64,000 nt of DNA, taken from positions 512,001-576,000 of the forward strand of contig CAXXUA010000005.1 of assembly GCA_963663765.2 (NCBI GenBank), written 5' to 3'. The notes beneath the pieces are model-generated. The model saw only the letters and a list, made by a program, of their open reading frames with translations, did not search any database and was not told the DNA's origin. Positions 36-35,835 of the stretch are shown piece after piece (position 1 is the stretch's first letter; every line of letters starts with the position of its first letter). The stretch comes from Candidatus Poribacteria bacterium (GTDB lineage Bacteria; Poribacteria; WGA-4E; WGA-3G). Position numbers and translations under genes: made by a program.

Positions 36-1898
36 CTATTTGTTCTCGTCGCTTGGGATTGTCCACAATAACACTGTGCCGTCATAACTGCCACTGGCAA
101 GGGTTTTGCCATCCGGACTAAATGCTACATTACGGACCCATCCCGTATGTCCTTTGAGTGTGTGTATGATCTTCCCCGTGTCTGTGTTCCACAAGCGGAT
201 GGTTTTATCCATACTTCCACTGACAAGTGTAATACCATCTGGACTGAACGCTACACAGTTGACCTGATTTGTATGTTCTTCCAGTGTGTGTATGATGTTC
301 CCTGTGTCTGCGTTCCACAAATGAATGGTGTTGTCTCTACTTCCGCTTGCGATTATTTTTCCATCCGCTCTGAACGCGATGCTCTTGACCGTTCGCGTAT
401 GCCCATTAAGTGTGCGGAGGCGATTACCCGTGTCTGTGTTCCACAAGCGGATGGTTGTGTCCTCACTTCCGCTTGCGATTGTTTTCCCATCTGGACTGAA
501 CGCGACGCTGATGACACCCTCCGTATGTCCTGTGAGGACGCGAAGATGCGTGCCGTTGTTTGCGTCCCACACGCGGACAGAGAAGTCCTTACTACCACTT
601 GCGATTGTGCTTCCATCAGGACTGAACGCGACGCTGGTGACATAATGTGTATGTCCTGTGAGGGTGTGTATGAGGTCACCAATGTTGAAGTTCCACAAGC
701 GAATGGTTTTGTCCTCACTTCCACTTGCGATTGTGTTTCCATCTGGACTGAATTCTACGCTGCTGACACCCTCCGTATGCCCTTCAAACGTGCGGAGAAG
801 GGTAGCAGTGTCTGGTTTCCATAGATGAACAGCTGTATCCTGACCGCAACTGGCGAGAATGTTACTATCCGGGCTGAACGCTACACTATAGACAGCATCC
901 GTATGTCCTTCAAATGTGCGGAGGAGATCACCCATGTCTGCATTCCAAAAACGGAGGGTTCCGTCCCCACTGCGACTGGCAATTGTTTTTCCATCCGGAC
1001 TGAAGGCTACACCTCTGACACCCTCCGTTTGTCCGTCAAACGTGCGTAGGTGATCACCTGTGTTTGCGTCCCACAAGCGAAGCGTATTATCCTTACTGAC
1101 GCTTGCGAATGTTTTCCCATCTGGACTGAAGGCTACATGTCTGACTATACCGGTATGTCTTTCCAGCGTGCGTATGAATTTATAAGTGTTAGCGTTCCAC
1201 AAACGGATCGTATTGTCACGACTTCCGCTGGCGATCATGTTACCATCTGGACTAAATACTACGGTGAAGACAGCAAACTCGTGTCCTGCAAGAGTAGGGA
1301 GGTAATTCCCTGTGTTAGCGTTCCACAAACGGATTGTGTTGTCTGAATTCCCACTTGCAATCGTGCTACCATCCGGACTGAAGGCTACGGTATAGACATC
1401 ACCAGCATGTGCTGTTAGTGTTCGGATGTGTGTACCGTTGTGAAAGTTCCACAAACGGACGGTTACGTCCCCACTGCCACTGGCAATTGTTTTTCCATCC
1501 GGACTGAACGCTACACTGCTGACCCAACTCTTATGTCCTTTGAGTGTGCGTATAAGGTCACTCGTGTCTGCGTTCCATAAGCGGATGGTGTTGTCAACAC
1601 TCCCACTGGCGATTGTTTTTCCATCCGGACTGAACGCTATGCTGGTGACTTGAGATGTATGTCCTGATAAGAGATCAAGTTCTTCGCCTGTCTGTGCATC
1701 GTATATCCACACGCCGATGCTACTTGCTACGGCTAACTTTGTGCCATCGGGTGAATACGATAAATTACCAGTAATCTGTCCTTTCCCGAGTCGTGCTTTT
1801 GCACCTTCGGGGAGATTCCATTCTGTGTAGTCTTGAGCAAACGTGGTTGTGGATGCTAAGGTCAGGACGATCCATAGTGTGTAGAATATGTGATTCAT
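36..1898 (-). CDS. Secreted WD40-repeat beta-propeller protein
   Basis: Signal peptide, LPEGAKARLGKG leader and about 14 GH...VAFSPDG...LW repeats. Confidence 0.95.
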   Translation of the reverse strand: MNHIFYTLWIVLTLASTTTFAQDYTEWNLPEGAKARLGKGQITGNLSYSPDGTKLAVASSIGVWIYDAQTGEELDLLSGHTSQVTSIAFSPDGKTIASGSVDNTIRLWNADTSDLIRTLKGHKSWVSSVAFSPDGKTIASGSGDVTVRLWNFHNGTHIRTLTAHAGDVYTVAFSPDGSTIASGNSDNTIRLWNANTGNYLPTLAGHEFAVFTVVFSPDGNMIASGSRDNTIRLWNANTYKFIRTLERHTGIVRHVAFSPDGKTFASVSKDNTLRLWDANTGDHLRTFDGQTEGVRGVAFSPDGKTIASRSGDGTLRFWNADMGDLLRTFEGHTDAVYSVAFSPDSNILASCGQDTAVHLWKPDTATLLRTFEGHTEGVSSVEFSPDGNTIASGSEDKTIRLWNFNIGDLIHTLTGHTHYVTSVAFSPDGSTIASGSKDFSVRVWDANNGTHLRVLTGHTEGVISVAFSPDGKTIASGSEDTTIRLWNTDTGNRLRTLNGHTRTVKSIAFRADGKIIASGSRDNTIHLWNADTGNIIHTLEEHTNQVNCVAFSPDGITLVSGSMDKTIRLWNTDTGKIIHTLKGHTGWVRNVAFSPDGKTLASGSYDGTVLLWTIPSDENK

Positions 1899-1973
1899 GT
1901 GTGGTTTACCTTCTTTTACCTGTATTTGCGTTGTTGGATAGCCAAATACCGGATAGTTGCGAGTGATTGAATT

Positions 1974-2816
1974 TTATTCTGTAGATAATATTCTGTTAAG
2001 ACTACCTCCGAGAATTTCTGCTTTATCGTTTTCGGGTATGAATGTGCAATGTGTTCTGAATGCTTCAAGAGCGTGTTGATATGTCATGAATTTACGGACT
2101 ACGGGATAATCGGAACCCCAGCAGAGTCGTCCTGGACCGAAATGTTCGTAGAGAGCACGCACAATCCAGTGTGTATCGGAATAGGGATAGTCCCACGAGA
2201 CTTGGGAAACGTAGGCGAATCCTGACATCTTTACATGGATATTTGGTATTTTTGCAGAGGTAAGAACTTCGTTTAGTTGTGGATATGGATGTTTTTCTCC
2301 AGAACGCGCACCTGCCATGTGATGACACAAAAACGGTATTGATGGGAACTGTGCTGCGAGTTTGCGTAATGGTGCATGTTGATGACTACCCATTGCTATG
2401 CTTGCGATTAACCCTAATTCTGCGGTTGTCTGGAAGAAATTCTGTCCTTCATCAGTAAAGAACCAGCTGCAATCGTCATCACCTTTGAGGTAGTGTGTGT
2501 AACCTTTTAGGTTGTATTTTTCTGCTGCGGATTTGAGTCTGTCCGTTGCGCCGTCAGTGTGGTAAGTGTCGGTCCAGGAACAGTCTACATCTGCGAATTG
2601 AATGAGTCTGTCTGGATAGCGTTGTACACACTCTGCAATGTAATCATTGTTATCGGGATTTTTGTCTATACGCGCGCAGATTATCACGGCTTTATTTACT
2701 TTGTGTGTATCCATTTCGTGTAGCAGTTGTTCAGCTGTTCCACGACTTTTCTCGTCAGGGACAGGCGGTTGGTAGGGCCAAGTGTGCCATGCGTGTGTGT
2801 GGGAATCAATAATCAT
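1974..2816 (-). CDS. Amidohydrolase_2 family metal-dependent hydrolase
   Basis: N-terminal IIDSHTH, HHMAG and WGSDYP motifs; start placed at ATG 2816. Confidence 0.9.
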   Translation of the reverse strand: MIIDSHTHAWHTWPYQPPVPDEKSRGTAEQLLHEMDTHKVNKAVIICARIDKNPDNNDYIAECVQRYPDRLIQFADVDCSWTDTYHTDGATDRLKSAAEKYNLKGYTHYLKGDDDCSWFFTDEGQNFFQTTAELGLIASIAMGSHQHAPLRKLAAQFPSIPFLCHHMAGARSGEKHPYPQLNEVLTSAKIPNIHVKMSGFAYVSQVSWDYPYSDTHWIVRALYEHFGPGRLCWGSDYPVVRKFMTYQHALEAFRTHCTFIPENDKAEILGGSLNRILSTE

Positions 2817-2979
2817 TTGGGTTTTATGTGTTGTTAATTGGTTGTTTATTGTTATAGTTAATCTTAGTATATATGCGTTGGTATGTTTTGTCAATTTGAA
2901 TTATTTGAAAACTGAATTCAGGGTGGTTTGACATTTTATACAAGAACTGATATCCTACACAGCAAGGAGGAGAAACATC

Positions 2980-4353
2980 ATGGCAACGTTAATGCAAACT
3001 GAAAATCGTATCAGACCGATCTATATTGATGGATACACCCACAAATTGAGTTACGAACCCGGTGAAGATATTGCGTTCCATGTCTCAACAAGTGCGGGAA
3101 ACTACTCCTTGGAAATTGCACGCATCGGTGTGACACGTGAAGTCGTATTCAACGAATCTGAACTCCCTGGGGAAGCACAACCTGTCCCTGAAAACGCTTC
3201 ATCACACGGATGTGGTTGGAATGCCACCTTCACACTTGAAGTACCAGACACATGGTAAAGTGGGTATTATGAAGGCACCCTTCGCGCAACTGATAGCGGT
3301 GGAGACACTTTATATAGAAACCAGCGTACTGCAGAGAGTTCACTGTTCTTCATCATTCGCGCTTCCAAACCGGGTGAAAACACACCCATTCTCCTCCAAC
3401 TCTCTACCAACACGTACAACGCTTACAATAACTGGGGCGGTTTTAGTCTCTACGGATTTCACGGACACAGTAAGTTGCAAGGCAACCGTGTTTCATTTGA
3501 CCGTCCTACTGGAGGCATCTTTAGAAATTGGGAATTACCCTTCATCGTCTGGGCAGAGCAGAACGGATATTCACTTGATTATGTAGTGAATAGTGACTTG
3601 GAATTCCATCCTGATATATTGGAACATTACAAACTCGTATTGAGCGTTGGGCATGACGAATACTGGTCTGCACCGATGCGGGATAATCTTGAAGCATTCA
3701 TCACAAATGGCGGTAACGTTGCCTTTTTTAGCGGCAATTCTGTGTGTTGGCAGGTGCGTTCTGAAGACAATGGACGCGCCCTCGTCTGCTGGAAGCAGAG
3801 TTACAACCAAGACCCTATCTATAAAACCGATGATTATAGTACGCTGAGTACCTTGTGGAGTCACTATCTGGTGAACAGACCTGAAAATCAGCTGACGGGT
3901 GTCGGTTTCTTACAAGGCGGTTATCACTTGAGCCACGGGCAGTTTATGGATGGTAGTGGTGCATATACAGTGCATCGTCCTGAACATTGGGTATTTGAAG
4001 GCACAAACTTAGCAAGAGATGACACATTCGGTGGAGAGCATACCATCGTTGGTTATGAATGTGATGGGTGTGAATTCACGCTTGAAGATGGTTTACCCGT
4101 ACCAACCTATAATGATAGCACACCTGAAGGATTTACCATCCTCGCAACCGCACCTGTCCGTTGGCATCCAGACGATTGCGAATGGTATGAACGTTGGCAA
4201 AAAGGACATACTGGCGCAGCAACAATGGGTATTTATACAAAGGGTGGCACCGTCTTTACTGCTGCAACTACAGACTGGTCACACGGATTGGCAGGTGGGG
4301 ATGCTGTTGTTGAGCGGATTACACATAATGTTTTGCGGAGGCTTTCGGAGTAA
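2980..4353 (+). pseudogene. N,N-dimethylformamidase beta-subunit-like protein with one in-frame TAA
   Basis: ORFs 2980-3258 and 3475-4353 share a frame. Read-through gives W*SGYY...NTYNAYNNWGG...SFDRP...VGHDEYWS...GYECDG; the only stop is TAA 3256-3258. Confidence 0.85.
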
Positions 4354-4423
4354 GCGCGCTATGTAAAATGAATTAAGTCATACTAACCAATATAAAATCC
4401 ACCCTTAAGAGAGTTTTGTCCTT

Positions 4424-5149
4424 CTATTTTTCCTGGTTTATCCATTGATCTAGTTCTTTCAAGTGTTCGCCTACGATAGAATGATCACTCCGCTGCCGAA
4501 ACTCATTACGGAGATTATTATATTCCTTTCTACCATATAGTGTTGCGATTAGGCAGAACAAAAGGGATATGGGACACTTTGCGGGTACGGGAAAAGAGGG
4601 TTGCGTTTCTGGGAGCCAACTGGGACAATCAATCTGCAGTTTACTATCAAGATAATCTTTATCAAATTTCTTAATAAGTTGTGCGTGGTGGAAGTCATGA
4701 ATTCCCTCTTTACCTGCTGGAGTCTCGGTCTGATTCGCGCTCTCTGGTGTTTCTAAACGAAAACCAATTCCGTAAGGTTTTTGACATTCGTCAGGGCAAT
4801 TGCCAAGACATACTAGCATGACTCTGAGTTTTGCGATGCTATGTGTTTGGTTCCACTTGCAATATAAAGACAGGATTGGGACAAAGTGACCATCTTTTTC
4901 CAGAGGGGGCAAGTATAAAACCTTGCCTTGATCGGAAAAATCCAATTGAGGTTGCTTAAATAAAGATTCTATCTCTTTAGTAGTGGTTATAGGTATCCAC
5001 TTATATTTTATTGCATTGTAAGTTTTCAATGCTTGACAGGATGGTTTTCGCTGCGATTTTTTTGTAATCCACGCCGATCTTTGTTTACTTAACAGATGTA
5101 TGAGAAAATCTTTTAACACGTTGCTTGGTGTGGTCATTGCACTCCCCAT
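4424..5149 (-). CDS. Hypothetical protein, last gene of the Dcm/MORC-HK operon
   Basis: 241-aa ORF starting 6 bp after the receiver-like gene; His-rich motif HDFHHAQ. Confidence 0.7.
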   Translation of the reverse strand: MGSAMTTPSNVLKDFLIHLLSKQRSAWITKKSQRKPSCQALKTYNAIKYKWIPITTTKEIESLFKQPQLDFSDQGKVLYLPPLEKDGHFVPILSLYCKWNQTHSIAKLRVMLVCLGNCPDECQKPYGIGFRLETPESANQTETPAGKEGIHDFHHAQLIKKFDKDYLDSKLQIDCPSWLPETQPSFPVPAKCPISLLFCLIATLYGRKEYNNLRNEFRQRSDHSIVGEHLKELDQWINQEK

Positions 5150-5155
5150 GTAAAA

Positions 5156-6460
5156 TTACAGCGAAAACCGAGCTCTGGGTCGGTAATCAATTTCGTCCTC
5201 ATTAAAATAGTTTACAAATCTTTGGGTAAAGGGCGAGGTAGTATCAGCGAGGAACTCTCTACAACACCCATGATTGTAGAAACGGGAAGCGTCTTCACAA
5301 AATACCCAATCAGGGGTCGCAGTCAACCAAGGTTCTGTTACTTCTTTGATGTCTTCACATTCGCGTAGTTTATCCCAAAACCAGACAGGTCGCGAAATCC
5401 AATGGGCTTTGTCAACTCTGCCGAATCTATAGCACTCAATCAAATTTGTATCCAATCCCAAATCTTCATGCCCTGCCAGTCGTGCTGTTTTATTCCAAGT
5501 TTCAATATTCTCCCTATCACCCTTAATTAAACTTGGATACCTTGAAACCAGATGCGGTGCATCTACCAAAATATCTTGCTCCGGTAGGACGAGTTGCTCC
5601 AACCATTTTGATATTCTGGCAGCACCAACCCTCGCTAAAACGTGCTTATTAATCTCATCGTCTGAATCCTTTATATCCTCTACATCTTTAAATCTCAAAC
5701 CGTTTCCAGATTTCGTTATAAACTCCCGAAACGTTGTTTGAAAATGTTCTTTTCCTTTATCTCTCCAGATGAATTGAACGATTTCTCGTGGTAGTAACTC
5801 AAATAAATCTCTGTCAAAACCAAGAAATTCACTGATGGGTTTCTCCAAATTGTCTTGAACATCTTGGACCCTTTCGTCAAAGTCACGCAGCAAATCACAT
5901 AAATTCGGCCAGCACCAAGGTCTGAACCCTTGTTCAGAATCCTGCCAATCACCCATCCAGAGATTAGGATTGTCTAACTGCTGATCCCCCAAATTCAAGT
6001 CCGCGAATGAATCCAGATCTCCTCTCAGGGTTAGATCAAAAGGATTACTACCATACTGATTCAATCCAATAATCAATTTGCATTTTGAAAAGCAGCGAAC
6101 AAGATAAGCGACGATTTCACCGGTTAGAAATCCTGTAATAAGTTTCATCTCTTTTTTCTTTTTCTTTTTTTCTTTCTCTTGACTATCCAATAAATCGTAA
6201 TCAATTATAAAAATTGATGCATTATCTATTTCATCTGCTTCATCCTTGTGATTATTTTCTAGATCCTTTTCTCCTTTCCGAAATTCAATTTGCCTCTGTT
6301 TCAACGCTTTTATTGCGTTTTGGAATTCACCATGTTTTAGGGATTTAACATTAAAATTTCCGCCTTGATTTGACTTGTCAAGTCCCTCCTCCAATTTTTC
6401 CATAAAACCCTTTGTACGTTTCGGTGCATCATCATATATCAGGATTGTTTCCTTACTCAT
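5156..6460 (-). CDS. Receiver (REC)-like domain protein with unknown C-terminal domain
   Basis: ILIYDD and IFIIDYDL resemble the REC acidic pocket and phospho-Asp strand; ATGA overlap with the kinase stop codon. Confidence 0.7.
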   Translation of the reverse strand: MSKETILIYDDAPKRTKGFMEKLEEGLDKSNQGGNFNVKSLKHGEFQNAIKALKQRQIEFRKGEKDLENNHKDEADEIDNASIFIIDYDLLDSQEKEKKKKKKEMKLITGFLTGEIVAYLVRCFSKCKLIIGLNQYGSNPFDLTLRGDLDSFADLNLGDQQLDNPNLWMGDWQDSEQGFRPWCWPNLCDLLRDFDERVQDVQDNLEKPISEFLGFDRDLFELLPREIVQFIWRDKGKEHFQTTFREFITKSGNGLRFKDVEDIKDSDDEINKHVLARVGAARISKWLEQLVLPEQDILVDAPHLVSRYPSLIKGDRENIETWNKTARLAGHEDLGLDTNLIECYRFGRVDKAHWISRPVWFWDKLRECEDIKEVTEPWLTATPDWVFCEDASRFYNHGCCREFLADTTSPFTQRFVNYFNEDEIDYRPRARFSL

Positions 6461-8625
6461 TTTTCTTCCCTCCATTCAATTGAGAAAGCGGTCTTAAATT
6501 CTTTTTGTGGTTCTACGAACCGGACACGACAACCAATATTGTCTGCCACTAATCGGACAATCGTAAGTCCGAGTCCGGTGCCACCGTAGCCAAGTGCTTT
6601 CCTTTCCGGTGAGATTTTTGACTCCCTTTCAAAAGGTTCAAACAACTTCTCTGCGTTTTTTAAATTGATCCCATGTCCAGTATCCTGGATGAGAATTTTA
6701 TGGTTTTTATCATGAGAACGAGAACTGATATGCAGCAAGCGTGTAGGAGAATCAAGCATTGCAGTAAAAGCGTTAATAAACACATTTTGAAAGATGGCAC
6801 CCCATTCAGCAAATGACGCCTTAGGAAGATACAATAGATCATCAAGTTGATTATAATTTATTTTAGTGTCTCTTGCCAAAAAACTTGTCTGGTGGGTGAT
6901 TTCTTCAATTACTGTCTTTGCCCGTAGTCTTTTGTCTCGCATTAGTATATTATCGGCATCAGCGACGTAGTCAAACAGAAGGTTCGTTGATTTTGCCCTT
7001 TTAAGCCAAACTGTTAAATCCTTGCTTAGTGAATTAAGATTTTTTTGAAGTTCAGAATCCAATGTCTTTATCGCTTTGATTTTATTTATGGTGTTTTCAA
7101 TAAAAGCAAACTGTTTTTGCAGTTCATGTTGATATGATAGTGCTGAAATACCCGCAGTGGCAAGGGGGGCAAGCATTCCCATCTGTCCAAGAACAAGTTC
7201 CTGATCATCCTTTACATTCGTTGTTGCCTCATGAACTTCCTTATAAATTTCTTTGTAAACTTCTTTAGGAATATCTGATTCGTATGCTTCTAACACCTGT
7301 TCAATACGTTCAAATTTCAAAGATGTTGGTTCAATTGATTTTTCTCGTTCTTTTTCTTTATTCCTTCTCTTTGTAGTTTCATGTGCGTAAAAATCTATTG
7401 CAGTACGAACCGTAGCTACCAAATCATCATAGGCAGTAGTCTGAGCTAAACGGTCTCTTGTAATCATGATTTTAAGATTAGGTTCATTGGAAGTATTGAC
7501 GATTACAATCCCAAGCACACGACCAAGAGTTGGTAAATTATGCATTGCATTGGAAATTGGCTCAATACTCTTACCAAGGAGTTTGGACTTGTTTTGTCTA
7601 TGTGAGTGATCATACTCTAATTTCAACCAATCGCTCGTTGGTAAACCGTAAAAAGGAAGACGAAAACCTCCATCATATACATGAACACCACCGTGTTTTT
7701 TGAAATATTCTCTTGCTTCTCCTACTTTGATCCTAAACTTTTGTTTTCCCTTTAAATTATAGATACGAATCTCAAAACGGCAAGTGTTTAGGTTTATATT
7801 CTTGTTGAATTTTCCATTATTATGGTCAAAATTTCTAATATTGTAATTATGGATTATTTTCTCTCCATCTGAAAACTCTAAGGAGAGGATCAGTTCCCCA
7901 TCAACACACTTACCAACAAGTCGAGCAATCCAGATACCCTTTACGGCATTCATTTGGCTTAAAAATTCCTTTTCAAAATCCTGCTGAGTTGATTGAAAAC
8001 GGATTCTAAAACGATCTTTTGGATTGTCCAAAGATGATGAGCCAAAAGGTGGTTGCAGCCACCACAATTCTGAAGCGAGTTCTTGAATAGATTTTTCTGT
8101 CCAATTATCTTTGTCCTTTAGACCTTCCAAGATGAGTGTAGTACCATGTGGGGTATCTAATTCCCATTTACTGCGGTTGTATATATCATATTCAACCATT
8201 ACTTTTGTTAGATCCTCAGCTTCCACAGCTTTTTTCCAATCTATTTGGGCTTCAAGCAGTTGAGGGTTTTTACCTTCTGGAAGAGTTTTTATTGTTAATT
8301 CGTTAGCTAGAAATTGAACTGCTAATCGTCCCACTCCTTTTGATCCGGTCATTTTCCGATTAAACTTTTTGGTAAATTCATTATTCTTATGAGTTGTTCC
8401 AATCCGCATCCAGAAATTTTTGAAATCACTATAGGTCATACCATGCCCATCGTCACTAATTTCAATACGTTCCATATCGGGTGTGAAATCAATTATGACT
8501 TCGGTGGCATCAGCATCATAACTGTTTTTTATCAATTCAGCTAAGGCAATGTGTGGTTTGCCAACGAGCCTTTCACCAAGTTCTCTTAGAAGTTCAGCAT
8601 CAATTGTAAAAGCTAGTGTGCCCAT
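6457..8625 (-). CDS. MORC/MutL-type GHKL ATPase-S5 fused to a histidine kinase
   Basis: ELIKNSYDADA, DDGHGM, GSKGVGR, GTTL (GHKL); VYDGGFR and ITRD (S5); YQHEL H-box; NVFINA, DTGHG, GTGLGL (HATPase_c). Confidence 0.9.
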   Translation of the reverse strand: MGTLAFTIDAELLRELGERLVGKPHIALAELIKNSYDADATEVIIDFTPDMERIEISDDGHGMTYSDFKNFWMRIGTTHKNNEFTKKFNRKMTGSKGVGRLAVQFLANELTIKTLPEGKNPQLLEAQIDWKKAVEAEDLTKVMVEYDIYNRSKWELDTPHGTTLILEGLKDKDNWTEKSIQELASELWWLQPPFGSSSLDNPKDRFRIRFQSTQQDFEKEFLSQMNAVKGIWIARLVGKCVDGELILSLEFSDGEKIIHNYNIRNFDHNNGKFNKNINLNTCRFEIRIYNLKGKQKFRIKVGEAREYFKKHGGVHVYDGGFRLPFYGLPTSDWLKLEYDHSHRQNKSKLLGKSIEPISNAMHNLPTLGRVLGIVIVNTSNEPNLKIMITRDRLAQTTAYDDLVATVRTAIDFYAHETTKRRNKEKEREKSIEPTSLKFERIEQVLEAYESDIPKEVYKEIYKEVHEATTNVKDDQELVLGQMGMLAPLATAGISALSYQHELQKQFAFIENTINKIKAIKTLDSELQKNLNSLSKDLTVWLKRAKSTNLLFDYVADADNILMRDKRLRAKTVIEEITHQTSFLARDTKINYNQLDDLLYLPKASFAEWGAIFQNVFINAFTAMLDSPTRLLHISSRSHDKNHKILIQDTGHGINLKNAEKLFEPFERESKISPERKALGYGGTGLGLTIVRLVADNIGCRVRFVEPQKEFKTAFSIEWREEK

Positions 8626-27715: not shown

Positions 27716-28621
27716 TTAGTTACCTATTTTTCCTTGTTTCGTACGATTCTTTGCTAAATCCACCGCAAAATCTATCATAGTTTTAGCGATGTTAGTGCCG
27801 GTGACGGACTGCAGTTCCTCAAATCCTGGTGAGGTGTTGACTTCCAAGATGACGGGTCCGTTATTCGTTTGAAGTAGGTCTACGCCTGCGATGTCTAAAT
27901 TTAATGCTGCAGCTGCGGCTGCGGCGATACGGTTATATTCCTCTGTCAACTTTATTGCTTGTCCGTTAGCTCCTTGATGTATGTTTGCTCGGAATTCACC
28001 TGCGGTTGCACACCTTTTCATTGCTGCTATGACTTTGCCTCCAACGACGAGAATTCGGTAATCTACACCAGCTGCTTCTGCAATAAAGGATTGGATGATG
28101 TAATCTTTGTGAAGTTCGCACATTGCTTCTACAGTTGAGGCCAATGAGGTAGGTGTATCTAATAACATGACACCGATTCCATGTGTTCCGTAAAAGGGTT
28201 TTAGGATGAATGGATAATCGCCTATGTGAGTTACTGCGTCTTCTAAGAATGAGGCAGAACCGACGGTAAGACTGGGTGGAATAGGTAATCCGTGTTGTGC
28301 AAGGATACGTAGGGAACGGAACTTGTTTCGCGCGTTTGCTATGGCATTTGCAGAATTGACGACAGGGATACCGAGCCATTCAAAGTGTAGGACAACCTCT
28401 CCACCGTATCTTGCTGTTGCGTTGCTGAGGCGCGGGATTACGACATCAAAGTTTTCTGCATTTGTGCCGTCGTAGGTCATTCGGGGACCGGTTCCCCCGA
28501 TTTGCATGTAGAATCCGAATGGGTCTCTGACATGTACAGTGTGTCCTGCTTTTTCGGCAGCTTCAACGAGACTTCGGGTTGAGTGGTTATCGGGACCACG
28601 GGAAAGGATGGCAATGTTCAT
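27716..28621 (-). CDS. RimK-family alpha-L-glutamate ligase (ATP-grasp)
   Basis: MNIAILSR, GTHGIGV, FRANIHQG and LEVNTSPG motifs. Confidence 0.9.
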   Translation of the reverse strand: MNIAILSRGPDNHSTRSLVEAAEKAGHTVHVRDPFGFYMQIGGTGPRMTYDGTNAENFDVVIPRLSNATARYGGEVVLHFEWLGIPVVNSANAIANARNKFRSLRILAQHGLPIPPSLTVGSASFLEDAVTHIGDYPFILKPFYGTHGIGVMLLDTPTSLASTVEAMCELHKDYIIQSFIAEAAGVDYRILVVGGKVIAAMKRCATAGEFRANIHQGANGQAIKLTEEYNRIAAAAAAALNLDIAGVDLLQTNNGPVILEVNTSPGFEELQSVTGTNIAKTMIDFAVDLAKNRTKQGKIGN

Positions 28622-30824: not shown

Positions 30825-31862
30825 TTAATCTCGTCGGTTTTGGTACGTTTCTTTTAGGAAATCATCTAATTCCTCAAAGCTGTCAAAGATACGGTCGCAT
30901 AAGTTTTCAAAGAAGATGCTGCGGGTTTCGTTGTAGACAGCATATACCGGTTTGTTATGTCGTGTTGCGTAGTTCATTTCGCTGAGAACACCTGGCGATA
31001 ATTTGTCTGTGGGATATAGGACAACGACAAAATCGCTTTGGTGAACAAACTGATAGTCTCTTGAGATAGTGCGTGTTTTGATCTGCTCTATTACGTCGTC
31101 GTCTAATTCGCTCATCGTTTCTGGGACATTCAGCATTTCGTCATCTGCCTCTGCTTTTGAGAAGGTGACGAGTGCCATGTCCTTGATTGCGAGTGGGTCA
31201 AAGACGATAAATGAATGACGGAGTTTGTCTCCGAGTTTGCGTATTTTTTGTATCTCCTCTGGCGTGTCTCTTAACAGTGTAATCGGGTAACTCAGGTAAA
31301 ATTTGGGTTTGTCTGAAAAAAGGAGTTCATAGAAGTTTGTGAGTTCGTGTTGTCTTGCGACGGTGTAGTATGGTTTTTCGGTGAGATGTGCGAGGTGTCG
31401 TGTAAGGAATTCTTCTTCGTCTAACCAGACATTGAGTGCAGTTTTTTTAATACCCGACCATTGTGCGTTTTTCTCCATGCGTGTGTATATGTCTGCAATG
31501 TTGTCAACGACGTTGATAAACATATCTGGTGGGAGAATTTCTATGTCTTTGAATGTAAATCCTTCCAGTAGACTTCCTCGCCATCGAAAACATGCGTGTA
31601 GTCCAATGATTGCGTGGTGATATGCTTTTGCGTCTCTTGCAATTTCGTAGAATGCGGTTCGACGTGCTAATGATAGGACAGCTGGGTCTGAGTCGAGGAC
31701 TTTTTGTGTGAAGTGTACGCGTGCTTCTGCTGCGACTCGGTGCATGTAGTCACCTACGTTGAAGAATCCTATGTTGAGTTGTCTTTGTAAGCAGAGCGCT
31801 TCAAAGTCTTTTATGAGTTCTTTGCGTCCTGAGCAGCTGATACCTGTGCAAAATATATTCAT
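30825..31862 (-). CDS. P-loop NMP-kinase-like domain fused to a nucleoside 2-deoxyribosyltransferase-like domain
   Basis: N-terminal TGISCSGRK and HACFRW; C-terminal YLSYPI, RDYQFVHQSD and SPGVLSEMNYA. Confidence 0.65.
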   Translation of the reverse strand: MNIFCTGISCSGRKELIKDFEALCLQRQLNIGFFNVGDYMHRVAAEARVHFTQKVLDSDPAVLSLARRTAFYEIARDAKAYHHAIIGLHACFRWRGSLLEGFTFKDIEILPPDMFINVVDNIADIYTRMEKNAQWSGIKKTALNVWLDEEEFLTRHLAHLTEKPYYTVARQHELTNFYELLFSDKPKFYLSYPITLLRDTPEEIQKIRKLGDKLRHSFIVFDPLAIKDMALVTFSKAEADDEMLNVPETMSELDDDVIEQIKTRTISRDYQFVHQSDFVVVLYPTDKLSPGVLSEMNYATRHNKPVYAVYNETRSIFFENLCDRIFDSFEELDDFLKETYQNRRD

Positions 31863-32197
31863 TGTTTTGTAATTTGTTTATTGTGAATTTTCCTTTATTT
31901 CATCAGACACTATGCGTGAAAAAGTTACCAATTGGACACTTTTTTGTTTTTTGGAAAGGTTTTATCTTTGGCCATAAATCCTGTAGTAGTAAGGGTATAA
32001 AGATGTTTTTATGTATTTTTTGGCAATTGCATGTTTTTTATGTTGGTGAAAGTGTAACATTTTGATTTTTCAACTTTTTGGTCGTATTTTGAGTTAATAT
32101 CAATCATAAGACACTCAATAATAAAGCAGATAATTTTGAACTCTATTAGGAAAAGTCAGAAATTGTCGTAAATATAGCCATTGTGATTTTAGATTAT

Positions 32198-32319
32198 CAG
32201 GACTTACGCACCCAACGGTAGGCGCGCTTTGTAAGCGCGCTGGAAACCGAAAAAATGCTGAAAATTACACCATTTTCGTCATAATTCTTCATCAAATCAT
32301 GAAAACTGCGTAAGTCCTG
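32198..32319. mobile_element. MITE with CAGGACTTACGCA terminal inverted repeats
   Basis: Perfect 13-bp TIR, ATTAT duplicated on both sides, sister copy at 34150-34343. Confidence 0.85.
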
Positions 32320-32360
32320 ATTATATAACAGTATAACTATAATGTCAAATAGATTAAATC

Positions 32361-32390
32361 TTGACAATGTGCGTTTGAGCATGGTATCCT
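32361..32390 (+). promoter_or_regulatory. Sigma70-type promoter for the tmRNA-like gene
   Basis: TTGACA-N18-TATCCT with TG extension, 12 nt upstream of the predicted mature 5' end. Confidence 0.65.
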
Positions 32391-32402
32391 TGAATTCTGC
32401 TC

Positions 32403-32485
32403 GGGGGTGAAAGGATTCGACGGAGGACGAAAGCGTGGTTGCTTTCAATAACTTCCGGATGTGGGTTCAATTCCCACCACCTCCA
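32403..32485 (+). ncRNA. Miniature tmRNA-like RNA (tRNA-like domain only, no tag reading frame)
   Basis: GGGGGTG pairs with CACCTCC, giving G3:U70 and discriminator A; stemless D-loop AAAGGATTCGA; CGGAGG/CTTCCG helix; GAAAGC/GCTTTC hairpin; T-arm GTGGG-TTCAATT-CCCAC. Confidence 0.85.
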
Positions 32486-34137
32486 TTTGCCTTAGTAATT
32501 TGATTTTCCCCAATTGCTTCCCGTGCTTCCAATACCTTTGCCACAACTGTTTTTACGTCTTCTTCATCAACAAACGGGGATAGGATATATGATTTTAGAG
32601 CGACAATCGGCTCTCCGTAAGTAGTTTTACGGTAGCAATCAGTCGTTGAAATAAAAACGCCTCTCCCCTCCATCGCTTCAGAATTCACATATTGAAAGAT
32701 TTCGCGGTTATAATCGTTGTGCGCTATTAAGCTGTCCCGATATTTGACATCCTCAAATTCTTGACTTTTGATTTCAAATGTGTCCACACCAACAGGATAT
32801 GCGCGAAAAAGGGTAACGGTTCCAAAATTCCCTCTGTTTAACACAGTTGTACCTTCGTGTCCTTCCAAATGTTCCCGTAGAAGTTGTGTCATTTCAACGA
32901 TGTGTCCGAGTATAGAACGTAATCCCTCTACTCCGAATAACTTGAGATTCGCAAGTGCTGCAAGCGGTCCTGTCCCAGAACGGGAAGTTTCAAGCGTAAA
33001 CATACCGGGACGATACTGCCCATAATGATAGAGATAAGGCATTTGTTCAGGTGTCCGTTTCAGTAACTCCATATCTGATTTTTCTTTCACAAGGACGAGA
33101 CTTGAAATATAGGGTGTGAAACCTGTTTTGTGGAAATCAATACCTACGGAATCTGCAAGACATAAATGCAGTATTCTTCTGCACGCCCCTGCTATTGCAC
33201 GGATAGTCCGTGGTCGGAAACCTAATGAATTCTGTTCAATGTCATAGTTGTTGAAAACTGACCATGCCCATCCGATAACGGCATCAGCATGGATATGCGG
33301 TTGATAATCCAATTGAAATTCATCAACGAGAATTTCCCGCAACGCAACGATACGCAATAAATTATCTAATCCGAACGCATCGGTAGTACCTAACGTAGCG
33401 ATAATAGCAGCAATCTTTTTACCTTCAGTGAGTGCTTTTCGGAGTTCTTGTTCAAGCAACTCAAGGTTAATCTCGTTTTCAAATGTTGTTGGAATAGTAA
33501 TAAGGTTGTCTGTGCCAATTCCGAGCCAACCGGTTATATTCGCAGCGCAGTAATGTCCCGCATCTGACACGAAGACAACAGCTTCATCGGGTGTACCCTT
33601 GTGCATTGTGTCCGGGCATGCTTTTTCTAACCCGATTTTCACTCCGTAGAGTGTTGTCCCTGTTCCGCCAAAAGTGAATACACCACTCGATTTTTCAGGA
33701 TCGTATCCGATCAATTGTGATGCCATCGCTATGACTTCAACTTCAGCCAATGCCACTAATCGACTGGATTCGTCCCAACATAGGTTCGGATTGTGTAGTG
33801 AAGCAAGGAGTACTCCCATTAAGCTTGGAATTGTTGTGGGACAAACCACGTTCTGTTGCGTGCGAGGATGTCCAAAAATTGTCATTCCTTGAAGGTAACT
33901 CACAAGATCGGTCGTGACCTCCTCAACTGAGGAAACGGAATCCGGCAACTGTGTTTTTCTTGCTGCTTCAAAATCAGCGTTTACAATGCTACCCAGAAAT
34001 GGTAGGTGTGTTTTGAGATCGTCAACCTGATCTAAGGCGCGCATCATGGAATGTATAAAGTATGAATCATGTATGGTATTGGATATTGGCTGGGGAAAGG
34101 CAAGTCTTATTTTTTCTAAAATGGTACGGTATGTCAT
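32467..34137 (-). CDS. Group II PLP-dependent amino-acid decarboxylase
   Basis: FGGTG, GTTDAFG, HADAVIG and DFHKTG (PLP lysine) motifs. Confidence 0.9.
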   Translation of the reverse strand: MTYRTILEKIRLAFPQPISNTIHDSYFIHSMMRALDQVDDLKTHLPFLGSIVNADFEAARKTQLPDSVSSVEEVTTDLVSYLQGMTIFGHPRTQQNVVCPTTIPSLMGVLLASLHNPNLCWDESSRLVALAEVEVIAMASQLIGYDPEKSSGVFTFGGTGTTLYGVKIGLEKACPDTMHKGTPDEAVVFVSDAGHYCAANITGWLGIGTDNLITIPTTFENEINLELLEQELRKALTEGKKIAAIIATLGTTDAFGLDNLLRIVALREILVDEFQLDYQPHIHADAVIGWAWSVFNNYDIEQNSLGFRPRTIRAIAGACRRILHLCLADSVGIDFHKTGFTPYISSLVLVKEKSDMELLKRTPEQMPYLYHYGQYRPGMFTLETSRSGTGPLAALANLKLFGVEGLRSILGHIVEMTQLLREHLEGHEGTTVLNRGNFGTVTLFRAYPVGVDTFEIKSQEFEDVKYRDSLIAHNDYNREIFQYVNSEAMEGRGVFISTTDCYRKTTYGEPIVALKSYILSPFVDEEDVKTVVAKVLEAREAIGENQITKANGGGGN

Positions 34138-34149
34138 TTTTACCTTATA

Positions 34150-34343
34150 CAGAACTTACGCAAAAAAGGTAGGCGGTGAATGCCTAAATGGCATTCATAC
34201 CCGGGGAATGCCTAAATGGCATTCATACCGTTGATTTCTTGATTTGGTGCTTTGTAAGCGCGCTGAAAACCCATAAAAACGCTGACAATTGCATCATTTT
34301 CATCATAATTCTTGATTATATCAAGAAAACTGCGTAAGTCCTG
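34150..34343. mobile_element. MITE of the 32198 family carrying an inserted hairpin repeat
   Basis: CAGAACTTACGCA...TGCGTAAGTCCTG; extra ~70 bp of GAATGCC-TAAAT-GGCATTC units relative to the 32198 copy. Confidence 0.85.
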
Positions 34344-34413
34344 CCTTAAATTAACATGTATAGTTTTTGTGAATTTCTATACATGTCATGGAATATATGT
34401 ATATTTTTTGTAC

Positions 34414-35835
34414 CTGACATACTCCCCAAGCTAAAGCATGGGGGTTCTTAGTTCTTATATTGGAAACGGTTTGAGTTGTTTCCAAACGACTTTTCCTGCT
34501 TCCGTGTCTCGTGCCCTTTCCTGAACAGCGTTGGGTCTTATTTGCACTCCACAGGCGTGACTTTCGGTGTGTCCCACCGTAGTTGGTTTCAAGTTTATTG
34601 CAGCGTTGACATCTCTATCTATAGACATATCACATTGACTGCAGTGATACATTCTTTCTGAAAGTGTTAGGTCTTTCTTTTTGTGTCCACAACCGGAACA
34701 GGTTTTACTACTTGCAAAGAACATATCTGCTTCTTTGACAGGTATACCGCGCACTTCCGCTTTTGTCTTGAGTTTTAGCAGGAAACCGCCTAATGCTGTA
34801 TCTGACAATGCTTTTGCGAGGTTTCTGTTCTTCAGCATATTAGTAACCTTGAGTGTCTCAATACCGATCGCAGATGTGAGGTTGACAATCTCTGTAGTTG
34901 CTTTATGATGAGCATCGTTTCGGATACAAGCGATACGATAGTAGATACGTTCTAACTTGTGTTTTTGTTTGAACCAGTTGTTAGACTTGAAAACTTTTCT
35001 ACTTAATCTACGTTGTTCTCTTGCTAACTTCTTTTCATATCGTTTCAGGGGTCTTGGATTATCATATTTCGTGCCATCACTCAATGTGGCAAGTGTGTTT
35101 ATGCCTACATCTATACCAATCACAGGGTGCGTTGAGTTATCAACTGCTTCGGTGTCCTCTGTTTCTATGGTGATAGATACAAACCAACGATGTGCTGTCC
35201 TTGAGATCGTCACTTTCATAATCTTACCCACAAAACGCAATGATTCAAACATGCTAATCCAACCAATCTTAGGAAGTTTGATACGCTTACCTTCAACTTC
35301 TACAGATTGATTATTTGTGGTGAATGCGTCCTTTTTGCCACGCTTCTTGAACTTCGGAAATCTCGCACGCTTACCAACCCAATTCGCAAGCGCAGCAGAC
35401 AAGTTACCAAATATGCTTTTATTGGCTACAACCTGATCCATATCTTTAGTCCAAGCATGTGCTTTCTTAGCAATATTAAATCGAGTGTTTAACTTCGCAG
35501 CGGATAAGAACTCATCATTTGCCAATGCAGACTTGAAATCTGCTAATGCATGATTATATGCAAATCTCGCATAGCCACACTGTTGTGCAAACCATTTTCG
35601 TTGATTGTTATTTGGATTCAATGCAATCTTATGTGTTTTTAGCATGATCATATTCCAGTCCTATGAAGACGTCAGTTCCCTCTACTAAAGGTGTGTAGGT
35701 GTTAGTAGCACCTACACTGAACTGGTATAATGAGTATCTCATGTTTTAAACCAAAAATCAAGTTTTTTCTTGACACAAGCACTTAGCACGACTACATCCC
35801 ACTACCTAAAGGTAGGGGTTTTGTCGTGATTCTTG
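34414..35835 (-). mobile_element. IS200/IS605-family element with solo tnpB (IS1341-like)
   Basis: Subterminal hairpins CCCCAAGCTAAAGCATGGGG (about 34424) and CCCACTACCTAAAGGTAGGGG (about 35797); ends approximate. Confidence 0.8.
34455..35651 (-). CDS. tnpB: RNA-guided nuclease TnpB
   Basis: HTH_OrfB start; RuvC motifs GIDVG / IETL / DRDVNAA; CSGC...CSQC zinc finger. Confidence 0.95.
   Translation of the reverse strand: MIMLKTHKIALNPNNNQRKWFAQQCGYARFAYNHALADFKSALANDEFLSAAKLNTRFNIAKKAHAWTKDMDQVVANKSIFGNLSAALANWVGKRARFPKFKKRGKKDAFTTNNQSVEVEGKRIKLPKIGWISMFESLRFVGKIMKVTISRTAHRWFVSITIETEDTEAVDNSTHPVIGIDVGINTLATLSDGTKYDNPRPLKRYEKKLAREQRRLSRKVFKSNNWFKQKHKLERIYYRIACIRNDAHHKATTEIVNLTSAIGIETLKVTNMLKNRNLAKALSDTALGGFLLKLKTKAEVRGIPVKEADMFFASSKTCSGCGHKKKDLTLSERMYHCSQCDMSIDRDVNAAINLKPTTVGHTESHACGVQIRPNAVQERARDTEAGKVVWKQLKPFPI

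Follow-up and report, generated by a model that had tools for sequence, protein, structure and literature searches.

A tRNA-like domain of tmRNA encoded as a stand-alone gene at one chromosomal site in a sponge-associated genus of Candidatus Poribacteria

A short ssrA gene without a tag-encoding part

On its plus strand, the window (the whole 64-kb stretch of DNA that was analysed) carries mini-ssrA, an 83-nt stand-alone gene for nothing but tmRNA's tRNA-like domain (TLD), which lies between a sigma-70-type promoter and a convergent decarboxylase gene (Table 1). Read directly, the gene consists of GGGGGTG and AAAGGATTCGA, followed by CGGAGG, the hairpin GAAAGC-GTGGTT-GCTTTC and CTTCCG, and ends with GAT, GTGGG-TTCAATT-CCCAC, CACCTCC and the discriminator A, up to which its length is counted; CCA is unencoded, and TTT comes after the discriminator. 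This is the sequence described in an earlier note on this DNA, and both tmRNA ends recognized there, 5' and 3', were confirmed by direct reading and by cmscan with RF00023.

When the window was searched with cmscan against all 4227 Rfam families, the tmRNA family RF00023 was the sole hit, at 32403-32488 on the plus strand with 63.2 bits (E 2.6e-22; gathering score 47). The model aligned end to end (positions 1-374), with high posterior probability at positions 1-26 and 337-374, and 23 nt stand for 310 interior positions. RF00023 was the best match of its clan for the short gene, over RF02544, and the permuted tmRNA models gave no match above gathering score in the window. The gene has a 7-bp acceptor stem with the alanine identity pair G3:U70, a stemless D-loop with GGAUUCGAC, a T-arm and the discriminator A of the tmRNA TLD. 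It has neither a resume codon with a short stop-ended tag frame nor the pseudoknots PK1-PK4, its interior being a single 6-bp hairpin, which bears out the earlier claim that the tag ORF and the pseudoknots are missing. Within the gene, no conserved stop or reading frame was found in 19 aligned copies; a UAA is present in the copy of the window's genome (G000) and missing in the remaining 18. The two TLD halves stand in normal order and are closed in cis, unlike those of two-piece (permuted) tmRNA, and there is no anticodon arm as in a tRNA-Ala cloverleaf, with ARAGORN reporting 0 genes in the window. The proposed structure is the minimum free energy fold, at -33.4 kcal/mol (z -2.81); 2 of 200 shuffles folded as stably.

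Table 1. Positions of features at the mini-ssrA locus in the window
Feature	Position	Strand	Details
Miniature repeat element, terminal inverted repeats CAGGACTTACGCA	32196-32327		Read in sequence
Sigma-70-type promoter	32361-32390	+	TTGACA, 18 nt, TG-n-TATCCT; 10/12 matches in scan
mini-ssrA	32403-32485	+	RF00023, MFE fold, 19 distinct homologues
Acceptor stem, 5' strand GGGGGUG	32403-32409	+	Pairs with CACCUCC at 32478-32484
Stemless D-loop AAAGGAUUCGA with tmRNA-typical GGAUUCGAC	32410-32420	+	RF00023 consensus GGaUUCGAC
Helix 2a and cap hairpin	32421-32457	+	CGGAGG (32421-32426) with CUUCCG (32452-32457)
Cap hairpin GAAAGC-GUGGUU-GCUUUC	32429-32446	+	Closes helix 2a, in place of pseudoknots and tag frame
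T-arm GUGGG-UUCAAUU-CCCAC	32461-32477	+	5 pairs
PLP decarboxylase neighbour, convergent	32467-34137	-	PF00282 at 58 bits

The promoter, which in a motif scan has TG ahead of the second hexamer TATCCT, aligns in both its elements in 14 of 15 genus copies, with L044 differing in sequence there; the claim of a stand-alone TLD gene with a promoter of its own held. From the sequence, transcription would be expected to start a few bases 5' of the mature G, so that RNase P would have a short leader to remove, and 0 intrinsic terminators were found 3' of the gene. The candidate RNA data comprised 9 runs from 3 studies, each with about one tenth of window positions 31000-35000. Three RNA runs, available as contigs only, had coverage on the miniature repeat and on the flank 3' of TnpB and none on mini-ssrA, which is uninformative either way since contig assembly of short structured RNAs is poor.

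The convergent neighbour is a group II PLP-dependent decarboxylase of unspecified substrate (all NCBIfam models scored below cut-off) and serves as a marker of the syntenic site. Its frame in G000 is without the usual stop and extends 19 nt into the RNA gene, with a length of 556 aa against 543 aa in most genus loci. The miniature repeat sits just 5' of the promoter in G000 only, and the alignment with relatives breaks there. A second copy lies at about 34154-34343; in a DNA run, joints link both copies, and the repeat has a depth of 1070 to 6935 against 3.6-6.7 at the unique flanks. The flanks of the short gene in G000 also hold GmrSD, Fic and two TnpB genes.

Selection on the fold and conservation of the site

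The fold of the short gene is under selection. Across 19 distinct copies with a mean column identity of 93%, comprising 25 pairs and 473 pair cells, standard pairs fill 99.2% of the cells, so that every stem pairs, as the earlier note had read from one sequence, and slid pairing registers are just 43-70% paired. Changes on both sides are found in 6 of the 25 pairs, and none of 500 shuffles matched the observed covariation score. These changes involve helix 2a (3 of 7 pairs), the cap hairpin (2 of 6 pairs, its UGGU loop being invariant) and the T-arm (one pair, U-A to C-G in 2 of 19 copies). All 7 pairs of the acceptor stem are invariant in the 19 copies, pair 3 being G-U in every one, as are all but one position of the D-loop; in canonical tmRNA, the deformed D-arm contacts SmpB (as described in PMC3985003). 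The coding strand is the plus strand, because its 42 G-U cells of 473, including G3:U70 in 19 of 19 copies, would read C-A on the opposite strand. We considered whether nucleotide 10, in the D-loop, forms a tertiary pair with the nucleotide preceding the T-stem; the two are A/A in 10, U/A in 6, A/U in 4 and U/U in 0 of 20 distinct sequences, and we rejected the pair as not significant, the absent U/U class being expected only about once.

The host genus is sponge-associated, and 22 of its 40 genomes carry the short gene at one syntenic chromosomal site and with the same length, as against 0 of 72 genomes from 5 further genera of its family and 0 of 16 from 3 further families of its order. Two copies are present in one further Poribacteria genome of unstated kinship. 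The conserved order is WD40 protein, Ca/Na antiporter, short gene and PLP decarboxylase; out of 15 genus loci, 13 have the decarboxylase directly 3' of the short gene and 11 have the antiporter next to that gene. Several carriers are single-contig chromosomes on which the short gene and the full ssrA lie far apart, and a second strain's short form was found in an independent DNA run. The earlier note had proposed a comparison with relatives and had considered a recent internal deletion of ssrA or an assembly collapse; both are excluded by the conservation, covariation and synteny found.

Being absent from 18 of the 40 genus genomes and decayed in at least two, the gene is dispensable. In G005 and G021, the same site retains a degraded 3' half only, with broken stems (local scores 40 and 46; 0 of 300 shuffles as high), and these two species show the outcome when selection is lifted. 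Over 10 non-carrier loci, remnants are clear in these two, borderline in two others (G011 and G007, where the score may stem from an adjoining 71-nt element) and not found at the other 6; G001 is without a decarboxylase match. A second TLD-like gene family, of about 71 nt, occurs in the same genus. Fixation of the short gene probably took place in the common ancestor of this one Poribacteria genus, with later loss in some species.

Coexistence with full-length ssrA and smpB, and origin

A complete ssrA, for which the earlier note had suggested a search, is present once in G000 (contig C5, 73367-73721, 163 bits), directly 3' of the single smpB and away from the short gene. Since a complete one-piece ssrA exists and helix 2a of the short gene is closed by its own covarying hairpin, the notion of one half of a trans-split tmRNA is a misfit. 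In three genomes (G008, G013 and G019), the short gene is present while smpB and the full ssrA are both missing; these are drafts (84, 81 and 95% complete), and because the two genes adjoin, one lost contig could explain the absence of both. Were both genes truly missing there, SmpB would not be required by the short RNA.

Derivation of the short gene from the lineage's own ssrA is only modestly favoured. The acceptor stem GGGGGUG/CACCUCC recurs unchanged in the order's full ssrA genes (32 of 32), and the TLD core has a mean identity of 84% to full ssrA of the genus versus 71.5% to 107 TLD-only genes elsewhere. The case is no stronger because the best-hit TLD identities are close (87% versus 83%) and the interior is at chance level: by eye its GCG..GGTTGC and TCAATA..CTTYCGGA line up with helix 2 of the resident gene, but 792 of 1000 shuffles of the 5' half and 152 of 1000 of the 3' half scored as high. 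We therefore dropped this collinearity as evidence for an internal-deletion origin, the local alignments being no better than shuffles. Just ahead of the T-stem, the order's full ssrA genes have C (GGAC; 32 of 32), as do 50 of 61 distinct viral TLD-only genes; the distinct short genes of Poribacteria have A or U there (17 of 17), and a substitution at a TLD position as conserved as this could affect the binding of SmpB or the tertiary fold.

Proposed function and alternative explanations

We propose that mini-ssrA encodes an RNA that accepts alanine, binds SmpB and, without itself tagging proteins, competes with tmRNA, and estimate the probability of this reading at about one half. The gene would be transcribed from its own sigma-70 promoter, RNase P would remove the 5' leader, and CCA, not being encoded, would then be added. 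Alanyl-tRNA synthetase would charge the RNA with alanine via G3:U70 and A73, and with a tmRNA-type D-loop and T-loop the RNA may bind the cell's single SmpB, and EF-Tu. It is expected to tag no protein, its resume codon, tag frame and pseudoknots being absent, and, being unable to tag, it would compete with full-length tmRNA at two points, SmpB and the vacant A site of stalled ribosomes. Trans-translation would thereby be damped or redirected, with donation of a single alanine at most. A TLD-only RNA strongly inhibits tmRNA in Escherichia coli, perhaps via SmpB titration (as reported in PMC4131195 and PMC11915505), and peptidyl transfer to TLD-only tmRNA has been measured (Shimizu and Ueda 2006, as cited in PMC3895274). 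Speaking against this reading are the changed nucleotide ahead of the T-stem, the dispensability of the gene and the three draft genomes in which smpB and full ssrA are both missing.

Such in vitro peptidyl transfer (PMC3895274) would also suit a productive, tag-free rescue, in which alanylated TLD and SmpB take over the nascent chain and the peptidyl-Ala-RNA is released by hydrolysis or drop-off, freeing ribosomes without a degradation mark as proposed for mitochondrial tmRNA. The architecture also fits that of tag-less organellar tmRNAs, which co-occur with SmpB (PMC11915505). We consider such rescue rather unlikely: the same cell has the full tagging system, and in E. coli the TLD-only RNA inhibited tmRNA and did not replace it (PMC4131195, PMC11915505). 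Small release factors of the ArfB type were not found in G000, where PF00472 matched just two frames, of 357 and 372 aa, and so there is no obvious release of peptidyl-Ala-TLD. A role off the ribosome, with the AlaRS-charged RNA feeding an aminoacyl-tRNA-dependent transferase of cell-wall, lipid or small-molecule metabolism, would need just the strictly invariant parts (the acceptor stem with G3:U70, the discriminator A and the T-arm) and no anticodon arm, which the short RNA does not have. Transferases use Ala-tRNA and accept minimal acceptor helices, and the change from the C that precedes the T-stem in 32 of 32 true tmRNAs to A or U might weaken SmpB binding. Yet an alanine donor would not need the D-loop GGAUUCGAC, the SmpB platform, which is invariant in the 19 copies, and the conserved neighbours (antiporter, WD40 protein and decarboxylase) include no transferase, so we give such a role little credence.

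A similarly small chance is given to conflict between phage and host, with the gene being either a domesticated phage TLD-only gene of the kind known from mycobacteriophage DS6A or a host decoy for phage factors or nucleases directed against tmRNA-SmpB or tRNA-like RNAs. DS6A-type genes abound on viral contigs, with at least 120 loci; among 50 loci checked, 14 had tRNA genes no more than 2 kb away. GmrSD, Fic and two TnpB genes flank the short gene in G000. These flanks are, however, specific to G000, the conserved neighbours being housekeeping genes; moreover, the TLD core is closer to the lineage's own ssrA, and the cap hairpin is unlike the AAAACC-GCAYGC-GG common to DS6A and the viral set. 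A pattern search of viral contigs for the Poribacteria type gave 0 matches, and BLAST of the window's gene against an annotated phage collection gave no match, although BLAST is insensitive for such genes; with a Mycobacterium-type copy as query, it found a single 31-nt match that overlaps an integrase. Less likely still is a non-working gene, whether an assembly collapse, a private ssrA deletion, a fragment left by island integration or a two-piece half. Integration at tmRNA genes is known and leaves pieces of the gene behind (PMC4131195), and a 99-nt deletion derivative of an enterobacterial ssrA (L092, in one metagenome bin) provides a precedent. That reading is very improbable given that both TLD halves are kept and capped by a covarying hairpin, that the length is equal in 22 genomes, including single-contig chromosomes with the full ssrA elsewhere, that the promoter is conserved, and that true decay at the site (G005 and G021) looks different. 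The second strain's short form in the independent DNA run also speaks against it, and an artefact shared across assemblies is very unlikely given closed long-read chromosomes.

The usual view of tmRNA is that of a universal bacterial gene, present in a single copy, with tRNA-like and mRNA-like halves that act together. It is possible, if somewhat doubtful, that one Poribacteria genus evolved a dedicated tag-less tmRNA paralogue from its own ssrA, which would tune or bypass tagging in ribosome rescue. If so, this would be the first chromosomal, vertically inherited tag-less tmRNA paralogue in bacteria, and tRNA-like RNAs that accept alanine and regulate translation quality control may form a widespread class that has been overlooked, one that takes in the Poribacteria gene, many DS6A-type genes on uncultivated phages, often placed amid phage tRNA genes, and the TLD-like family of about 71 nt. 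A conserved natural TLD-only gene beside intact tmRNA-SmpB is a ready-made in vivo experiment on what the TLD does alone (titrating SmpB, competing for the A site or adding a single alanine) and a test of whether cells control trans-translation by an RNA competitor. Standard annotation misses TLD-only genes, with ARAGORN silent and the DS6A example under the Rfam gathering score, and this may be why the literature searched has a single published phage case, while relatives of it were found here on at least 120 viral contigs.

Comparison with known systems

So far, the TLD-only form is on record only from a single phage and certain organelles; the literature searched describes no gene of this kind on a bacterial chromosome, though the supplementary tables of PMC11915505 (97,179 curated tmRNA sequences) may contain such genes. 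Among published cases, mycobacteriophage DS6A comes nearest with its TLD-only tmRNA gene (tmRNA Website; Hudson, Lau and Williams 2014, PMC4131195), which we located at 28478-28560 of JN698994 by running the Rfam model on the phage record, BLAST being too insensitive here. Like the short gene, it is a TLD of about 80 nt without a tag frame, with a G3:U70 acceptor stem, stemless D-loop, hairpin-capped helix 2a and T-arm, and 61 distinct viral sequences share this plan with it. The short gene agrees with the DS6A-type plan in its contiguous TLD halves, hairpin-capped helix 2a, absent tag frame and length within 75-85 nt, and departs from it in having neither the inner motif (an A-rich stretch and a CC-GCAYGC-GG hairpin) nor a phage location. 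The acceptor stem is GGGGCCG in DS6A and GGGGGUG in Poribacteria, and the cap hairpins are AAAACC-GCACGC-GG and GAAAGC-GUGGUU-GCUUUC. On RF00023, the Poribacteria short genes reach 63-71 bits, above gathering score, whereas DS6A scores 43.2 bits, below it. The DS6A gene resides on a temperate phage, whereas the Poribacteria gene is chromosomal, syntenic and vertically inherited in the genus.

Standard tmRNA (RF00023, including the full ssrA of G000) shares with the short gene the acceptor stem, D-loop motif, start of helix 2a, T-arm and discriminator, and in both CCA is unencoded. The short gene is without about 270 nt holding the tag frame, resume codon and pseudoknots, has A or U in place of the invariant C before the T-stem, and has a D-loop 3 nt shorter than that of the G000 full ssrA; the second T-stem pair differs from full ssrA in 17 of 19 short copies. 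The short gene resembles tRNA-Ala in G3:U70, A73, T-arm and overall length, but has no D-stem or anticodon arm; ARAGORN makes no call, and genuine tRNAs of the same genomes score only about 32-35 bits on RF00023.

Tag-less tmRNAs are known from the mitochondria of jakobids and oomycetes (RF02544), and in Mallomonadaceae two plastid genes of about 65 bp are reported in PMC11915505, which confirms the mitochondrial precedent given in the earlier note; the rsx RNA and smpX of Clostridia, also named there, were not found in the literature searched. The organellar RNAs likewise have no tag frame and, from what that source describes, appear to act with SmpB. In organelles, however, the tag-less RNA is the sole tmRNA and the mitochondrial genes are usually permuted, whereas the Poribacteria gene is not permuted and comes in addition to a complete ssrA. 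Nearly the same design as that of the short gene, with the TLD halves bridged over helix 2a by a small hairpin, is seen in PDB 2CZJ, where 25 residues of the 5' part and 34 of the 3' part of Thermus thermophilus tmRNA were joined by UUCG and crystallised with SmpB (as described in PMC3985003). That RNA is man-made, and the cap hairpin of the natural short gene is longer and conserved, with an invariant UGGU loop; by analogy, the binding of SmpB by this 59-nt, UUCG-closed fragment shows that an RNA of such a design can fold and bind SmpB.

Identity and fold of the short gene

The earlier note had proposed a stand-alone gene for tmRNA's tRNA-like domain (TLD), and its 83-nt sequence was identical on re-reading. 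Among all Rfam families scanned, the sole match in the 64-kb window was the tmRNA family RF00023 (63.2 bits where the gathering score is 47; E 2.6e-22), with both ends of the 374-position model matched and 23 nt in place of 310 interior positions; ARAGORN made no tRNA or tmRNA call across the entire window. In the minimum free energy fold (-33.4 kcal/mol, z -2.81), which is the proposed structure, the acceptor stem has 7 bp, the D-loop is unpaired and helix 2a has 6 bp; there are also a capped hairpin and a T-arm. The gene has no encoded CCA, and a scan 3' of it found no intrinsic terminator.

Features of the short-gene locus, in window coordinates
Feature	Position	Strand	Remarks
Repeat element, first copy	32196-32327		small, terminal inverted repeats
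Sigma-70-type promoter of short gene	32361-32390	+	TTGACA, 18 nt, TG-n-TATCCT; 10/12 matches
Short gene	32403-32485	+	83 nt
RF00023 match	32403-32488	+	
Decarboxylase end	32467-32510	-	
Repeat element, second copy	~34154-34343		
RNA-rich stretch	34414-34940		3' of TnpB gene, into its 3' end
TnpB gene	34455-35651	-	

Across 19 distinct copies, mean column identity is 93% and the flanking DNA diverges. In pair statistics computed on a structure that we specified, standard pairs make up 99.2% of 473 pair cells, and both sides have changed in 6 of 25 pairs (three in helix 2a, two in the cap hairpin and one in the T-arm). None of 500 shuffles reached the observed covariation score or percentage paired, and sliding partners by 1-3 columns lowers pairing to 43-70%; kinship among the sequences inflates the pair figures, and the slid controls retain that kinship. 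G-U pairs occupy 42 cells on the plus strand, G3:U70 among them in all 19 copies, and therefore the plus strand is the RNA. The UGGU loop of the cap hairpin is invariant, a hint that it may make some contact. The reading as a stand-alone TLD gene is supported, and we put the probability that this is a real RNA gene selected for the TLD fold at about 90%.

Distribution and genomic context

In a first draw, 15 of the 25 genus genomes had an 85-88-nt form scoring above the Rfam gathering score, and the short form was found in none of 16 genomes from three other families of the order. A search of the whole family (112 genomes) recovered all 15 earlier positives, giving 22 of 40 genus genomes and none of 72 from five other genera. 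A sequence-pattern scan in which each of 185,579 species was represented by a single genome returned 45 loci, of which 18 are of the Poribacteria type, that is, like the gene in the window. One of these 18 comes from G128, a Poribacteria genome of 7.3 Mb whose kinship is unstated, in which a full ssrA is accompanied by two short copies. Of the two, the second (contig C1 1999836-1999921, L234 3001-3086; 57.6 bits) has a similar promoter of its own and C, not G, at position 1, leaving a C-C mismatch atop the acceptor stem. Three metagenome contigs with the short gene added no new variants. Four genomes from other genera of the family (G116, G122, G042 and G104) have, besides their main ssrA, extra full-length ssrA-like matches (335-445 nt, 140-151 bits), which may be island- or prophage-borne.

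The usual order in relatives is a WD40-repeat protein, a Ca/Na antiporter (TIGR00367, above cut-off), the short gene, a convergent PLP-dependent decarboxylase and a variable stretch, past which several loci encode a protein resembling, from its sequence, glutamyl-tRNA synthetase. The decarboxylase adjoins the short gene in 13 of 15 loci and the antiporter in 11 of 15, and promoter elements can be aligned in 14 of 15 copies; the locus is ordinary chromosome, not prophage. In the source genome (G000), GmrSD and an AAA_17/nucleoside-deoxyribosyltransferase-like protein replace the usual upstream genes, and a TnpB, a Fic and a second TnpB lie past the decarboxylase. All of these are specific to G000, as is the repeat element at the promoter, two copies of which bracket the short gene and decarboxylase, the first abutting the promoter. 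This element is very high-copy in a DNA run (depth 1070-6935 versus 4-7) and also appears in RNA contigs. RNA contigs from three studies cover the RNA-rich stretch at high depth, reaching 5478 in a size-fractionated library, a pattern consistent with an abundant guide (omega/re) RNA of TnpB. Loss of the usual stop has lengthened the decarboxylase in G000 and G016 (556 aa versus 543), and its final codons are the complement of the short gene's 3' end.

Among first-draw genus genomes without the short gene, 9 of 10 retain the decarboxylase. Beside it, two (G005 and G021) keep a recognisable broken 3' half of the short gene, with local scores of 40 and 46 that none of 300 shuffles matched; G011 and G007 hold borderline remnants, and the remaining decarboxylase loci of these genomes hold none. 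Because of these broken remnants, we consider the gene ancestral, dispensable and fast-decaying when selection is lifted, and such decay makes the intact copies in the other 22 genomes more telling.

Relationship to the resident tmRNA gene

The G000 assembly (6.35 Mb, 15 contigs, 97.8% complete) contains both a full-length ssrA (~352 nt, 163 bits) and smpB, for which the earlier note had advised a search; ssrA lies directly 3' of the sole smpB gene, on the same contig as the short gene and ~470 kb from it. The short gene is thus a second gene and not a damaged sole copy. That note had also raised assembly collapse, a recent deletion and one half of a split tmRNA. Collapse is excluded because single-contig chromosomes (for example G017, G003, G020, G022 and G024) carry full ssrA and short gene megabases apart. 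A private deletion is rejected in view of the short form in 22 of 40 genus genomes and the full ssrA elsewhere in G000, and a split-gene half is rejected since helix 2a is closed by its own covarying hairpin and a complete one-piece ssrA is present. In a Pseudescherichia metagenome bin (L092), a 99-nt sequence fuses the opening ~55 nt of an enterobacterial-type ssrA to its final ~40 nt; it has the look of a private deletion or an artefact, such as the earlier note had feared here, and is unlike the Poribacteria gene.

The short genes have the acceptor stem GGGGGUG/CACCUCC in common with every one of 32 full-length ssrA genes drawn from across the order. Mean identity of the short-gene TLD core is 84% to full ssrA of the genus, 82% to order ssrA outside the genus and 71.5% to 107 TLD-only genes of other sources, with best matches nearly equal (87% for full ssrA versus 83% for TLD-only genes). 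A likeness of the interior to the resident ssrA helix 2, seen by eye, was no better than shuffles. Sequence comparison therefore lends modest support to descent from the lineage's own ssrA, in which everything within helix 2 would have been lost and the cap then remodelled. The short genes differ from full ssrA in the nucleotide before the T-stem: all 32 full genes have C there, as do 50 of 61 distinct viral TLD-only genes, whereas all 17 distinct Poribacteria short genes have A or U. The D-loop of the window's short gene has 3 nt fewer than that of the G000 ssrA.

A second TLD-like family of ~71 nt occurs in 7 of 40 genus genomes at the threshold used, with up to three copies per genome (G000 contig C3 6957-7027, minus strand, equal to L003 1501-1571; also L235-L242). 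It has a conserved promoter and a covarying G3:U70 acceptor stem (GGGGGUG/CACCUCC or GGGGGAG/CUCCUCC). The hairpin in the middle varies and bears 7-nt loops resembling anticodon loops; a leader and trailer pair and covary, with a T-run after them, and neither the UUCGAC nor the GGAC motif is present. Its top Rfam match is tmRNA (38-48 bits), and ARAGORN made no calls.

Possible function

The short gene is conserved and promoter-bearing, its RNA folds as a tmRNA TLD that bears the identity elements for alanine, and G000 also has tmRNA and one SmpB. Elsewhere, TLD-only RNA has been shown to bind SmpB, to be alanylated, to accept peptide and to inhibit tmRNA. By analogy, the Poribacteria RNA would bind SmpB, be alanylated, accept peptide and inhibit tmRNA as a tag-less competitor in trans-translation, a mechanism to which we give even odds. 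Productive rescue is disfavoured because a PF00472 search of G000 found no ArfB-like factor. Any SmpB-centred role is made less likely by the replacement of the invariant tmRNA C by A or U, and by three genomes (G008, G013 and G019) with the short gene in which neither smpB (PF01668) nor full ssrA was found. These are drafts (84, 81 and 95% complete), and the simplest reading is one missing contig, smpB and ssrA being adjacent.

Comparison with known TLD-only RNAs

The tmRNA of mycobacteriophage DS6A has been classed as 'TLD only' (Hudson et al. 2014, PMC4131195), and a similar molecule is reported there to inhibit tmRNA strongly, perhaps via SmpB titration (citing Mao et al. 2009). SmpB has been co-crystallised with a UUCG-closed TLD fragment (reviewed in PMC3985003), and a TLD-only tmRNA has served as peptidyl-transfer acceptor (cited in PMC3895274). 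A 2025 tmRNA database paper (PMC11915505) names as CDS-less the tmRNAs of mitochondria and DS6A and two plastid genes of Mallomonadaceae, along with two groups of bacteria in which a tag frame may be missing; its text, supplementary tables aside, makes no mention of Poribacteria or extra bacterial TLD-only genes. The literature consulted names no phage TLD-only gene besides DS6A.

In its record (L245), the DS6A gene lies at 28478-28560 (RF00023 43.2 bits, under the gathering score); its plan and its inner AAAACC-GCACGC-GG hairpin recur in the viral pattern matches. A pattern scan of IMG/VR placed genes of this type (75-95 nt, median 79) on at least 120 viral contigs, of which 80 were fetched (61 distinct sequences; L099-L178), with tRNA genes within 2 kb at 14 of 50 loci checked. 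At three such loci ARAGORN builds a doubtful ~330-nt 'tmRNA' whose end coincides with the 3' end of the viral TLD-only gene. Of the 27 non-Poribacteria loci from the genome scan, 4 are identical to viral contig sequences; the Poribacteria-type pattern occurred on no viral contig. Three Nostoc species (L058, L064 and L080) carry an 81-nt TLD-only gene with syntenic flanks 91-95% identical over ~2 kb, which by this sequence comparison makes Nostoc a second lineage of bacteria that conserves a TLD-only copy. The Poribacteria short gene is the first chromosomal, genus-wide TLD-only paralogue that we can document beside an intact ssrA-smpB pair.
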